Assembly: GCA_964016885.1 (NCBI GenBank)
Contig: CAXHJY010001019.1
Location: forward strand, 1-30,734
Length of the DNA stretch: 30,734 nucleotides
Origin: Eledone cirrhosa
Lineage: Eukaryota
Direction of reading: 5' to 3'
Of this stretch, positions 1,321 through 17,728 are shown one piece after another. The position numbers were made by a program, and so were the translations under genes. Numbering within the stretch: the first letter of the stretch is position 1; the number at the start of each line of letters is the position of its first letter. Below the pieces are notes generated by a model. The model searched no databases and was not told the DNA's origin. It saw nothing but the letters and a program-made list of their open reading frames with translations.

Positions 1321-1612
1321 TTTGAAGAGGTTAAACTGCCAGTTTAACCTCTTCAAATGCAAGTCGGTGTCATAACGGTATGTCGAATCTATTTATCTAT
1401 AAAACTGTTTATATTGTATTTTATCTGAGGAAGGCATAGCATATTGTTAATATGATATCCCCGAAATATATATAATGAAATAAATATGGTTTTATAAATA
1501 TAGTTTCCATTTATTTAATATTGCAAATATACTCCAAATATTTGTCGAGTGCTTTTATATCAGTTATAAATATTTACTAGTTGTAACCAACAATTTTAAA
1601 TATAACTTTCCA
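1321..1612 (+). mobile_element. Short hammerhead-containing dispersed repeat (Penelope-like pseudo-LTR or retrozyme-like unit), copy 1
   Basis: Near-identical reverse-complement copy at 14401-14680; hammerhead motif followed by AATAAA (1479-1484); flanked by (TA)n on both sides; 17-bp fold-back at the 5' end. Confidence 0.75.
1417..1482 (+). ncRNA. Minimal type I hammerhead ribozyme
   Basis: Stem I TATTTTAT/ATGAAATA (one G-U); core CTGAGGA (1425-1431) plus extra A; stem II GG..ATA.CATATT-gtt-AATATG.TAT..CC; GAAA (1463-1466); palindromic stem III ATATATAT; predicted cleavage after AUA at 1474. Confidence 0.75.
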
Positions 1613-1761
1613 TATATATATATATATATATATATATATATGTATATGTGTGTGTGTGTGTGTGTGTGTGTGTGTGTGTGTGTGTGTGTGTGTGTGTGTG
1701 TGTGTGTGTGTGTGTGTGTTTTATGTGTGTGTGTGTGTGTGTGTGTGTGTGTGTGTGTGTG
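1613..1761. repeat. (TA)n followed by (TG)n compound microsatellite
   Basis: Direct reading. Confidence 0.98.
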
Positions 1762-2451
1762 TTACAAACAGAAAGACAGAGGACTAAATTCCAATATAAT
1801 AACATTTAATAATATTGGCCTCGTGGCAGGATAAAGATGTTGGTGGCATTGATGTTTGTGGTTTTGCTAGAACCTCGATGTGTTTCTGCCGTTTCATCGT
1901 TCTCTTCAATGTGACGTGTAGGACGTACATGTGTGTGTAAAGTAGCGACGAACGTAAAGTCTATAGTGTAGAGTGGAGGAGAGGGTGGAAGGAATGCTAG
2001 AAGGCAATTGAAGACGAGAGAGAAAAGGAAAAAAAAAATGATGCAAGAATTGGAGGAGATGAGGGCTGAGGCTCGGTCGGTTGTTATTTAGCGGGGTACA
2101 TGTAAACTATTTGTTATTTCTTTTTTTATTTGCAAAACTGAGAATTCGGGTAGCCGTGGTAGTGGTATGAGGGCAGATGGGGATGAGATGAAGCTGAAAC
2201 GAAGGAAAGGGAAGTGGTTCGGGGCGGATTTCAGAGAGGAGAGGAACCTTTATTCAATTAATAATATTGCCGCGTCATCGAATACTCCTGGGATCTGTGG
2301 ATTGGCGTGTTGAGCAAATCCCGAAAATAACGCCAGTTAATTCTACAGCTCCGCAACAACTAGTTCGTATTTTTTCTTTTAACTGTTCTTTGGCCTCAGG
2401 ATAATAAATAAATACATAAAAAGGGCTCGTCTACGTTGTCGTTAGATCTAC

Positions 2452-2532
2452 ATGCTAGAAATACGAGCCAAATTTCCATGAAACCATTACCTCCCGGGTA
2501 GGGTGCGGTTTCAGTGAAGTTTAGACACGATG
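2452..2532. repeat. Dispersed repeat, 'tgctagaaatancagccaaat' family
   Basis: Aligns by eye with 4374-4452; the core motif recurs near 4190 and 4887. Confidence 0.7.
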
Positions 2533-3634
2533 TCTTAGACATAGTGATCGTATGTATGTATGTATGATGTATGTATATGTATGCAAGTAGGTCTTGGGTG
2601 CTGTTGGTAACATGAAACCCAGGGCAACCTGTTGCATGGTAGGGTTGTTGGCGACTAACCCGGGCACCTACCTAGCATGTTTTGTAGGGAGCAGGAGTTC
2701 GGATACCCTGCCGGAAAGAAAACAAATTTTGCCAAGGAGCAATGGAACTCACGAGAGTCAAGAACCATCCAGTAGTGTGTATGTATGCTTGTGCATGTAT
2801 GTGTGTATTTACATAAATATGTAAATGCACACGAGAGAAGGGCACTCTTACTTGAAACCTGTGGTGTTAGTAGTCTCTGGCCATCTTGCATTGTTTTTTT
2901 AAATGTTGATAGTTTAACAGTTTCCAGTATTTACAATGTCTCTTATATCGCACAAGCGTTTCTTACAATAAAATCTGATGTGTATACATTTTTTGCAACT
3001 ATTTTATTTTTACCCTTCATATCCCATCCAATACAAGTGAGGACACGAACATGGAACTAATACGGCGGACCTTTCGTTGTAGCGATCGGAGTATCACGTG
3101 CGACTGCGACAAAGAAATATCGCCACTTCCGTAGTTTTCTAACTCGGGTGTAATATAGGTGAGAGCTGCCGCATTACCTCGGTGCCCTACGTTGAAATGA
3201 TTTTGAGGGAGGAAAGTATCCTTAAACTGAAAACCTGCTGAAGACATCCACGAGCCGGGTGGACCACTTCATCGTGAGAACCCTTCTTTAAAGAGAAGCA
3301 AGCCCGTTGTCAGGTTTGGGGGCTCGTTGTGGAATAAGCATATCACTGTACCCCCACCAAACATACACAGACTTAGCGACGGGCTCCGACGAAAGGTGGT
3401 CATATATGTTAGCGAGTTGACAACCATCGTGTATGTATAAAATATAAATATAACGCTGTCATAGTCATTACACACTCCAATTCCACAATATTACAACTAC
3501 TATGACAACAGCCATCATTACTGTTAGTCGCTCTACCACTACAACTACCACCACCAACACAACCAAATGCTAACTACTACAAATGATAAAACCAACCACA
3601 AGTGTTAGTAACTGCCAATATCTAGTACAACAGC

Positions 3635-3702
3635 TGCTGCTACTATTACTACTACCACTAATACAACTACTACTACTACTACTACTACTAATAATAATAA
3701 TG
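3635..3702. repeat. (CTA)n/(ATA)n trinucleotide microsatellite within a degenerate ACT-rich region
   Basis: Direct reading; explains the poly-L and poly-S ORFs at 3570-3830. A second (ACT)n run lies at 4693-4722. Confidence 0.95.
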
Positions 3703-3860
3703 ATTTCATTTATTGGCCACAAGGACCGACATGTAGGGGATAATACAAAGACAGGGACAGTGGGGGGTTTACAATAAGATCGAGTAAAAGTGCACGATGG
3801 CAAGACTAATTTAACAATGAAGATATACAAATATAAAATAAACTATGTATAAATAATGAT

Positions 3861-3967
3861 AATTGTTTCTACTTTAGGCACAAGGCCAGCAATGACTCCA
3901 GTGCATTACTGGTACTTTATTTTATCGACCCCGTAAGGATGAAAGGCAAAGTCAACCTCGGCGGGAT
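3861..3967 (-). mobile_element. tRNA-derived SINE family A, 3' half
   Basis: Reverse complement (cccgccgaggttgactttgcctttcatcc..ggggtcgataaaataaagtaccag..ggccttgtgcc..gtagaaacaatt) matches the copies at 6033, 7481 and 21180. Confidence 0.85.
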
Positions 3968-4175
3968 AATGATAATGATACTAAACACGATCACCAACGA
4001 ACTACTACTACTAGTAGTACTACCAACATCAATATCACCTACCCGCCAACTACCAACACCCAAACTATATTTACGATTGGGGAAACGTTATCTATATAGG
4101 TCAATTCATCCAACTACAACATTATCATCATTAGCATCACTGTTATCGCTATATCAGCCACCACTAGACACATGT

Positions 4176-15863: not shown

Positions 15864-15986
15864 TGGCGTTTGGTTGAGTGGTTAGAGAACTGGATTCGCA
15901 ATCGTGAGGTTGTGAGTTCGATTCCTGGACCGGGCGATGCGTTATGTCCTTGAGCAAGACACTTTATTTCACTTTATTTCACGTTG
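15864..15986 (+). mobile_element. tRNA-derived SINE family B, head region
   Basis: A-box TGGTTGAGTGG, B-box GTTCGATTCC, then gtccttgagcaagacactttatttcac. Confidence 0.85.
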
Positions 15987-16248
15987 CGACCGATAGATAG
16001 TATTAGCAATTGGAAAAACCAATGGAAACACTGTTTCCTCGGTCCGATTTGACGAAAGTCGATCGTTAGGAATATAAATATATATATATATATATAAATG
16101 TCAAGTAAGAATATTTTCGAAACAGCCTGTGGATTTGAAATTATTAGAAATGTTAGCTATCGCCGTATTTTGACTAAAGAAATTAAAGAAATTATTTAGC
16201 CTGATAGTGGGGCTAAGAACCCTCGGAGAAATAGAAAAAGATGAGTAT

Positions 16249-16320
16249 TGACGTACATGGGAGTCGAACCCACATCTTTGGTTATCCGGACCACTGTGCT
16301 ACCATTTACACCAACACATC
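16249..16320 (-). pseudogene. tRNA-like cloverleaf (pseudo-tRNA, GGA at the anticodon position)
   Basis: GATGTGT/GTACGTC acceptor with three G-U pairs; D arm GTGT-aaatggta-GCAC; anticodon arm TGGT-ccggata-ACCA; T arm GTGGG-TTCGACT-CCCAT. Lacks U33 and purine 37. Confidence 0.7.
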
Positions 16321-16390
16321 ACCCGTCTTTTTCCATTCAAATTAGAAGCTATAAACTTAGCGACTCTAATGTCAAGTAAGAATATTTTCG

Positions 16391-16918
16391 ATACATACAT
16401 ATATGTACGTATGCATGTATGTATATATATATATACATATTACTGTACGTCTGTATACATATATGTATGTACGTATACATACTTATATTTAAGTAACAGC
16501 CGTACTAAGAGTGAGAAATGAAATTTCGTTTTATTTTTTCCATTTATCGTTTTCGGTGGGCCAGGCCGATTAACTCATTCGATATGCAAATTAGGCTGCT
16601 CAGTCGTTAATATGCATAAGGAAAGTATATACTTTCAAACGTTCAATCATCTGGCAGGAAGGTATATGTTGCTGACGATAGCTAATAAGCTTGAAACTAG
16701 TACAGCCTTCTTTTGTCAGTGTTGAACAAATGAGCAACGATGGTTGCTAGACACTGTACGGCTTAATTCGGGATGTTTGTTTACAGACACACCGAGCATT
16801 ATAATAAATGTTCGGTGAATCCATACGTACATATATGTATGCGTGCATGTATGTATATATATATACATACTACTGTACGTCTGTATACATATATGTATGT
16901 ACGTATACATACTTATAT
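16391..16918. repeat. Two direct repeats of about 97 bp (16391-16488 and 16823-16918) flanking a unique core
   Basis: Both share tactgtacgtctgtatacatatatgtatgtacgtatacatacttatat. Confidence 0.9.
16668..16706 (+). ncRNA. Minimal type I hammerhead ribozyme
   Basis: Stem I GTTG/CAGC; CTGACGA (16672-16678); stem II AGCT-aata-AGCT with a T-T mismatch at its base; GAAA (16693-16696); palindromic stem III ACTAGT; predicted cleavage after GUA at 16702. Confidence 0.7.
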
Positions 16919-16936
16919 ATATATATATAAATATAT

Positions 16937-16980
16937 GCGCCCGTGATGTTTGCTCTAATTAGAGCAAACATCACGGGCGC
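16937..16980. repeat. Perfect 44-bp palindrome
   Basis: gcgcccgtgatgtttgctctaa|ttagagcaaacatcacgggcgc. Confidence 0.98.
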
Positions 16981-17683
16981 TCTATCTCAAAATTATTTTT
17001 TAAAAGCATTAGAAATGCGCGGTAAAACTTAAAACCAAAACTGAATACTAACCAATACTATTACTAATTTTTACTTATTCCTAATTAAACTATTTTTCAC
17101 TGGGAACAATTTGTCAGCATTTTCTTTTCCTTTTACCAATATATCATAACTCGTGTTACACCTCTATTCTTTTATATATATATATGTGTATATATATAGT
17201 GATAGAACACTGGAAGGTAATATCCTTAGTGGTAGAGCACTCAGTCCATGGGACGAGTTAGGTAGAAGTGGTTACACAACCTTTTGGTTCACCATACCGA
17301 GAACAATTATTTCACCTTAGCGGATCCTCACCTCGTAATGGACATGGTTATACTGAACAGCAACATCACAACTTACAATTAAGGACAAAATGAAAACACA
17401 CACACACATAGAACAAACAACTTACAATTAAGGACAAAAAAAAAAAAAAAAAAAAATGAAAACACACACAGGACAAAATGAAAACACACACACACATAGA
17501 ACAAACAACCAACCAACAATAAATAAATGAATAAATAAATAAACAAATAGATAAATGAACACAAACACACACAGACACCCGGATGTGGCGCAAGCGCAAA
17601 CTGAGCACACAACACGCACACAGAAACAAAATGGCGTAGGATAGAAGAAAGGAAAGGCACAGAAACGAAAAAAAAAAATCCCC

Positions 17684-17728
17684 AGTCACTGAAGAGGTCA
17701 CAGAGTGTGTGACGAAAGGACTATGACT
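17684..17728 (+). ncRNA. Minimal type I hammerhead ribozyme
   Basis: Stem I AGTCA/TGACT; CTGAAGA (17689-17695) plus extra G; stem II GTCACA-gagtg-TGTGAC; GAAA (17714-17717); stem III AGGACT; predicted cleavage after CUA at 17723. Confidence 0.82.

Follow-up and report, generated by a model that had tools for sequence, protein, structure and literature searches.

Hammerhead ribozymes in ends of Penelope-like elements and in a retrozyme on a contig of Eledone cirrhosa

Contig CAXHJY010001019.1 of Eledone cirrhosa (GenBank assembly GCA_964016885.1; 30,734 nucleotides, analysed in full and referred to here as the window) carries five minimal hammerhead ribozyme motifs within 16 kb, which raises the question of what kind of element brought them there. 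An earlier note, made from the letters of this DNA, had assigned the five motifs to four families, linked them to Penelope-like elements (PLEs) and retrozymes, and proposed that they belong to small retroelements without an open reading frame (ORF) that sit preferentially beside (TA)n tracts. The analysis reported here supports the link to PLEs and retrozymes and suggests another answer as to size and coding: very probably, four of the motifs lie in truncated ends of coding PLEs (families A, B and D), and one lies in a retrozyme (family C) likely copied by a Penelope-like enzyme.

Five motifs and their genomic background

A descriptor for type I hammerheads, which asks for CTGANGA, a stem II of 2 bp or more, GAAA, a closed stem III, UH and a stem I of 4 bp or more, is matched exactly five times in the window (the entire 30.7-kb contig, from a genome of 3.0 Gb), with cores starting at 1425 (+), 6922 (+), 14590 (-), 16672 (+) and 17689 (+) and predicted cuts after 1474, 6949, 14541, 16702 and 17723; the motif coordinates of the earlier note are the outer ends of stem I. 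All five motifs possess the CUGANGA/GAAA/UH core and three stems in type I order. Their stem III segments read as the note gave them: ATATATAT (1466-1473 and a minus-strand twin), ACGT (6945-6948), ACTAGT (16696-16701) and AGGACT (17717-17722). The extra base that it reported after A9 in four motifs is present in both motifs of family A and in those of B and D, the motif of family C having a U-U mismatch that closes stem II instead. The motifs at 1417 and 14533 form a single family A (arms 91-94% complementary), and each motif belongs to a dispersed family, in agreement with four families for five motifs and with the wider claim of several families in this genome.

Chance matching in AT-rich repetitive DNA is a rival account of these motifs, and one so improbable that it can practically be set aside. 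It draws on the shortness and AT-richness of the stems and on a scan of the window against Rfam that gave no hammerhead among the matches listed (150 of 282), which were mostly microsatellite-driven miRNA matches and made the scan uninformative. Against it, 300 dinucleotide shuffles of 1322-19960, made in 500-nt blocks and scanned at four stringencies, contained 0.0-0.05 motifs on average, and five motifs were reached in 0 of 300 under all four stringencies. A genome sample of 400 kb, taken in pieces of 10 kb at forty regularly spaced places on the large chromosomes, held 35 strict matches, 15 of them in one array, compared with 1 match in ten shuffled sets of 400 kb. The hammerheads at the five named sites, and their density above shuffled sequence, are thus confirmed. 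Clustering of the motifs in all loci fetched from the genome, with stem II left unconstrained, sorted 282 motifs into 39 clusters, in which the pairing of stem II is kept across unrelated sequences (more stable than in shuffles, z < -1.5, in 26 of 39 clusters); stem III is palindromic in 27 of 39, a count that is partly built into the filter.

The 400-kb sample gives a density of one motif per 11-19 kb; simple extrapolation from this small and overdispersed sample puts the genome total at about 1.6-2.6 x 10^5. It also gives an expectation of 1.6-2.7 motifs for the window, of which the observed five are a mild excess. A special cluster kept by the host, for instance for RNA processing or the production of circles, is highly improbable on these numbers. 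In its favour are the five canonical motifs in 16 kb, which become nine when family E and a scrambled-order pair (both described below) are included, and a Poisson chance of about 0.02 for at least five motifs in 30.7 kb when the array is counted once; yet that chance is about 0.14 when all 35 matches per 400 kb are counted, one sampled 10-kb stretch holds 5 motifs and another 15, every motif of the window has dispersed family members to which it is 90-99% identical, and PLEs accumulate in (TA)n-rich DNA, which is abundant on the contig. The window cluster is close to the genome background, and the special clustering implied by the earlier note is correspondingly weak. About a third of the contig consists of very long, degenerate (TA)n/(TACA) tracts (1-1321, 19962-20940 and 23090-30730), which probably serve as targets for PLEs.

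Elements that carry the hammerheads

All four families are high-copy and dispersed. Candidates at first look number 1733 for A, 2024 for B, 2811 for C and 370 for D, 40 of which were scored per family (top copies 89-99% identical). Locus counts refer to the best 24-29 loci per family outside the window, a choice that favours young, intact copies; individual loci carry handles beginning with L. The nearest named protein relatives are from Argonauta and Octopus.

Family A has marks of the Hydra clade of PLEs, judging by its ORF motifs and its (TA)n target. Copy 1 (1322..1610, +), 98% identical to the 3' end of the longest A copy (L056), appears as a 5'-truncated 3' end, or pseudo-long terminal repeat (pLTR), of a Hydra-type PLE; it sits between (TA)n tracts, opens with a 20-bp fold-back that can be read directly in the sequence (1322-1341, +), and contains hammerhead A1 (1417..1482, +; stem I 8 bp, core 1425-1431, stem II 31 nt, GAAA 1463-1466, palindrome ATATATAT, predicted cut after 1474). 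Copy 2 (14402..15010, -), a 5'-truncated 3' end of about 610 bp that is 95% identical to L056 and inverted relative to copy 1, ends in a (TA)n tract (14350-14401) and contains hammerhead A2 (14533..14598, -; core 14590-14584, predicted cut after 14541). Five long A loci have common upstream sequence of up to 3.5 kb at 92-98% identity, and L056 contains a 683-aa stop-free frame made up of reverse transcriptase (RT), linker and GIY-YIG nuclease that ends about 1.5 kb upstream of the hammerhead, the 3' non-coding part of the element being about 1.6 kb long; the N-terminus of the ORF (RWK motif region) is missing from the copies retrieved. The encoded protein has DKT, a CxCX5C linker, and CxxC and CxH around the conserved E and N residues, with no CCHH, and it has 362 homologs, many with PF26215. 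Pieces of the family's own ORF occur in 7 of 29 A loci, and an inverted upstream copy in 19 of 29. Among secondary matches, 15 of 21 stop at query position 187, the main copies reaching 266, which leaves a one-sided tail of 80 nt.

Family B looks like a Neptune-like PLE by its linker and nuclease motifs. Its copy in the window (6823..7042, +) is a 220-bp 3' end that is 97% identical to L034 and is preceded by a (TA)n tract (6763-6822); it contains hammerhead B (6918..6953, +), with a stem I of 4 bp, core 6922-6928, stem II GGAC/GTCC and a loopless stem III, ACGT, that can form only in a dimer, the predicted cut falling after 6949 (GUU). Three B loci (L034, L044 and L040) extend upstream into RT and GIY-YIG frames, the upstream sequence of L034 coding for RT thumb and GIY-YIG. 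The family D copy (17355..17894, +; 95% and 85% identical to L098) comprises the last codons of the ORF and the PLE 3' end, finishing in (TA)n, and contains hammerhead D (17684..17728, +; stem I 5 bp, core 17689-17695, stem II 6 bp, stem III AGGACT with a tandem G-A mismatch in the dimer, predicted cut after 17723). In L098 a 472-aa open frame ends about 330 nt before the hammerhead, and the D protein is 64% identical to an Octopus vulgaris protein and has a weak RVT_1 match. In both B and D the GIY-YIG nuclease contains CCHH-type residues and is preceded by a linker of the form CX4CxxC, within the pattern CX2-5CxxC; as sequence marks these are shared by the Neptune and Nematis clades and do not tell the two apart, and by its motifs family D is a Neptune- or Nematis-like PLE. 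Its RT motifs may be Nematis-like. ORF pieces of the family itself are found in 4 of 24 B loci and 17 of 24 D loci, and inverted upstream copies in 11 of 24 D loci.

The preference for (TA)n proposed in the note is upheld in all three families: (TA)5 stands at the 3' end of 29 of 29 A loci, 21 of 24 B loci and 11 of 24 D loci, against a background of 14% of bins (460 of 3234). Its statement that no Penelope RT or GIY-YIG ORF is visible in the window also stands (at E<=1e-4 none of the A, B and D ORFs matched it in tblastn), and it was because the window holds no PLE ORF that the elements had been read as ORF-less. Extended to all four families, that reading, in which small ORF-less elements multiply in trans from short masters, is very unlikely. 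Most copies are indeed short, only a minority of loci bear ORFs in A (7 of 29 loci) and in B (4 of 24), the description is true of family C, and some short A or B copies may have been amplified secondarily. Set against this, several independent loci of each of A, B and D run colinearly into ORFs, and the D copy of the window opens with the last codons of its ORF; 5' ends in the three families are staggered, following TA microhomology, and same-strand neighbours are rare (in A 3 of 29 loci, in B 2 of 24, in D 1 of 24). Families A, B and D are ORF-linked and mostly solo rather than ORF-less tandem units, and their copies in the window are, by sequence, 5'-truncated ends of coding PLEs. The ORF linkage of A, B and D, together with the tandem units of C, bears out the earlier link to PLEs and retrozymes, and the picture of small ORF-less elements survives for C.

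Family C (16388..16921, +), whose tandem unit is non-coding and 426-435 bp long and is present here as about 1.25 monomers, contains hammerhead C (16668..16706, +), in which core 16672-16678 is followed by a U-U closing pair and an AGCT/AGCT stem II, with palindrome ACTAGT and a predicted cut after 16702; the U-U closing pair is the commonest form of the family (79 grouped copies). Units of 426-435 bp lie head to tail in 9 of 24 loci, a long array (L195) has 15 intact motifs within a single 10-kb stretch of the sample, and no ORF of its own was found in 24 and 29 loci (two partly overlapping sets). With tandem, non-coding units that each bear a type I hammerhead, family C is by its organization a non-LTR retrozyme. 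An inverted upstream copy is present in 13 of 24 loci, and the ends of 40 of 44 runs of C sequence are confined to two bins of 10 nt each, which lie about 220 and 270 nt past the cut site; the inversions and the two preferred 3' ends amount to a PLE-type insertion anatomy, from which copying of C by a Penelope-like enzyme is likely. Two candidates for a helper were rejected: Hydra-type ORF pieces abut C in 2 of 24 loci (L073 and L074) and do not match each other, and C sequence occurs in only 1 of 19 loci of the family to which L074 belongs. None of the sequencing runs listed as holding the C unit was an RNA dataset. In a single C copy (L228, C6:50712369-50715496), A-to-G changes extend over about 20 nt just upstream of the cut site, compatible with RNA editing copied into DNA.

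Several results weigh against this assignment of the five motifs to PLE ends and a retrozyme, or against the activity of the motifs. Pfam recognised neither the A nor the B protein and matched D only below its cut-off; because of this, the domain calls for A and B rest on motifs and homologs. When loci were picked by the downstream part alone, 1 of 29 A loci reached the ORF within 1.5 kb, a flank just past which the A ORF ends, and 0 of 29 B loci did so. An inverted upstream copy was found in 1 of 24 B loci. For C, (TA)n follows the 3' end in 7 of 24 loci by a crude test, and no helper PLE was found in the fetched C loci, the loci of the L074 family or the 400-kb sample. The minimum-energy fold pairs core bases at 4 of 5 sites, the fold with an open core costs 0.6-3.3 kcal/mol in all five, and no covariation within families is demonstrable among copies that are 95-99% alike.

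Copying through the cut site and a family with a variant core

With the core held open, stems I and II form in all five motifs, and the self-duplex energies of stem III range from -1.7 to -4.8 kcal/mol; cleavage as a dimer via the palindromic stem III is plausible. Low activity has been published for PLE hammerhead dimers (PMC4209133). Among copies selected by the sequence downstream of the cut, a 25-nt identity test showed family sequence to be kept upstream of it in 79 of 87: 28 of 29 copies in C, 27 of 29 in A and 24 of 29 in B. Three B copies (of 29), and perhaps one A copy, start at the cut site, and the other failures are offsets or short upstream truncations. This read-through of the cut site implies that inserted copies come mostly from uncut RNA. 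A cleavage footprint at the B cut site was considered and rejected, since 27 (TA)n junctions fall there compared with 44 and 74 at two other sites of TA microhomology; in matched controls junctions are not enriched at the cut site, and the genome bears no trace of cleavage. The data lean, on the evidence of copy structure, towards insertion from uncut RNA, and in vitro work by Frangieh et al. (PMC11167929) describes two internal RT start sites and uncut RNA as template.

These observations could be produced as follows. The GIY-YIG nuclease of an element would nick a (TA)n tract; its RT would begin internally on the RNA, at either of two sites that lie downstream of the ribozyme and 50-80 nt from each other, and would copy through the uncut hammerhead, usually stopping after 200-600 nt; TA microhomology would then join the 5' end to the target, and a second, inverted copy would often be added. 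The outcome would be solo hammerheads that border (TA)n and show no ORF nearby. Cutting is predicted to be slow and to take place only when two copies pair via the palindromic stem III, and the enzymes of helper PLEs would serve family C.

The earlier count of five holds for canonical motifs and was incomplete, for family E is present twice and two scrambled-order motifs lie beyond the range that the note covered. Family E copy 1 (14153..14349, -, with an inverted tail piece at about 14305-14349) is apparently the 3' end of a second Hydra-type PLE and carries motif E1 (14205..14289, -), which has a CCGACGA (U4C) core at 14286-14280, a stem II region of 60 nt, GAAA, palindrome ACGCGCGT, a short stem I and a predicted cut after 14208. 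Copy 2 (15286..15429, -) carries motif E2 (15333-15417), with a CCGACGA core at 15414-15408, a weakened stem I and a predicted cut after 15336. Stem I is 2-3 bp long in this family. One locus (L150) has the end of a Hydra-type ORF colinear with E, broken by a SINE-like (short interspersed element-like) insertion, and another (L138) has an inverted piece of that ORF; in its linker and C-terminal motifs this piece agrees with the ORF of family A. There are 1934 E candidates, and since the 400-kb sample contains 0 matches to the family, E is rarer than A, B and C.

Among 25 E copies found via upstream sequence only, a script read CCGANGA in 14 and CTGANGA in 3, the latter being a diverged subfamily. 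The E core can be hidden by an 8-bp helix, in which U4C turns a U-G pair into C-G. In a covariation test on 40 of 56 aligned copies, near-duplicates and gapped copies being excluded, the hammerhead fold had 90% of cells paired (108-299 of 500 shuffles were as high) and the core-hiding helix 92% (458-500 of 500 shuffles were as high), covariation being not above that of shuffles. An intron inside stem II of E, for which D. virilis offers a precedent, was rejected, as no plausible GT-AG spacing was seen by eye. Family E may simply have decayed. A joint reading would have about 10^5 hammerheads in dozens of families, with E growing after it had fixed U4C as a natural switched-off or switchable hammerhead, and with PLE copying, given the read-through of the cut site in all families tested, favouring uncut RNA and able to select damped ribozymes; this we hold to be doubtful. 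If it is true, the U4 and C4 subfamilies of E are a ready pair for asking what PLE hammerheads do.

Other motifs and repeats lie nearby. An inverted pair of scrambled-order (SGC) hammerheads, 96% alike (21973-22043, +, and 21657-21728, -), has the order site-GAAA-CUGANGA, with a GGTATA site at 21973, GAAATACC at 21994 and CTGATGA at 22021; stem I (TGGTCTT/AAGATCA) pairs fully, stem III (GGTAT/ATACC) pairs, and stem II would need an upstream strand. The type was defined in PMC10085705. The locus mentioned above, L074 (356-1265, -), belongs with L161 and L207-L225 to another young Hydra-type family (98-99%, 1116 candidates), the 3' end of which has a U3-A8 core variant; more U3-A8 motifs occur in the 400-kb sample. 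A repeat at 16097-16392, flanked by a 24-bp direct repeat and containing a tRNA-like segment (Rfam tRNA, 42 bits, 16249-16320, minus strand), has relatives in several loci and is probably a tRNA-derived SINE. A perfect 44-bp palindrome (16937-16980) at the 5' end of a repeat family (about 16940-17200) with many relatives in the fetched loci looks like a fold-back 5' end. A tandem array of about 16 copies of 75-79 bp (18605-19819) lies in an element with inverted partner sequence near 22100-22410 and 19840-19960. An abundant SINE-like repeat (3856-3967, 6031-6217, 7480-7663 and 21186-21373) is present in most fetched loci and is also the one inserted into the family E ORF in L150.

Comparison with known systems

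The association of PLEs with hammerheads is already published, including that of an Octopus Hydra PLE; to a specialist, probably nothing but the density and the fixed core variants will be unexpected. Dimeric PLE hammerheads were reportedly the subject of work by Lunse, Weinberg and Breaker in 2017. In the literature considered, with subscription papers outside its scope, Craig et al. (2021, PMC8557442) is the one study that deals with hammerheads of octopus, and the supplement of Li et al. (2026, bioRxiv 10.64898/2026.07.22.740005) may list similar families. What this genome adds is a young (95-99% identity) and very dense set of PLE and retrozyme hammerheads.

Like the pLTR hammerheads of PLEs described by Cervera and de la Pena (2014, PMC4209133), the motifs have a short stem I and a palindromic stem III, with a bulged base after A9 and G10.1-C11.1 in A, B and D; they likewise occur mostly as solo copies from truncated PLEs, in opposite-strand pairs 100-700 bp apart and in many families per genome. 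They differ in the longer stem II of A (31 nt) and E (60 nt), the U-U closing pair of C and the U4C of E, and in copy number, about 10^5 compared with about 2,000-9,000 PLE hammerheads per genome, figures obtained with different descriptors. Other published counts are about 5,000 for a mussel and, for the axolotl with its genome of 28 Gb, up to 120,000 (PMC7229834; bioRxiv 10.64898/2026.07.22.740005), and the hammerhead density estimated here is far above the published figures compared, though the descriptors differ.

Family A resembles the Hydra clade of C-terminal endonuclease-bearing (EN+) PLEs (PMC8557442) in its ORF motifs, its insertion at (TA)n and its hammerhead, and its tail and inversions match the tandem or inverted structure and one-sided tail described there. 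The hammerhead listed for Hydra-1_Obim differs from A and E in sequence, and the supplement text gave no match to short motifs of A and E, although line breaks there could mask one. Families B and D, placed by motifs alone, share the CX4CxxC linker and the CCHH-type nuclease residues with the Neptune and Nematis clades of the same study. Frangieh et al. (PMC11167929) trace the one-sided tail of PLEs to two internal RT starts, which the two 3' ends of A and of C resemble. As to the role of PLE hammerheads (PMC8557442, PMC11167929), the present data lean to insertion from uncut RNA.

Family C is like the non-LTR retrozymes of metazoans (PMC7229834; bioRxiv 10.64898/2026.07.22.740005) in being AT-rich, non-coding and tandem, with one type I hammerhead, and in occurring as monomers, dimers and long arrays in a PLE-rich genome. 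Its unit of 426-435 bp differs from the typical length of about 300 (51-972 reported), and its connection with PLEs comes from insertion anatomy and not from likeness to a known pLTR. Animal retrozymes have been proposed to use PLE enzymes (Li et al. 2026, bioRxiv 10.64898/2026.07.22.740005; PMC7229834), and the insertion anatomy of C is evidence for such PLE-style copying. Both core variants have precedent among the natural variants of Perreault et al. (2011, PMC3088659), the U10.1-U11.1 mismatch in C and U4C in E; U4C is reported there to lower activity in vitro while viroid infectivity is retained. Unlike the rare single cases of that study, the variants of C and E are the majority state of high-copy families, and these natural core variants (U-U in C; U4C versus U4 in E) ease a direct comparison of cleavage.

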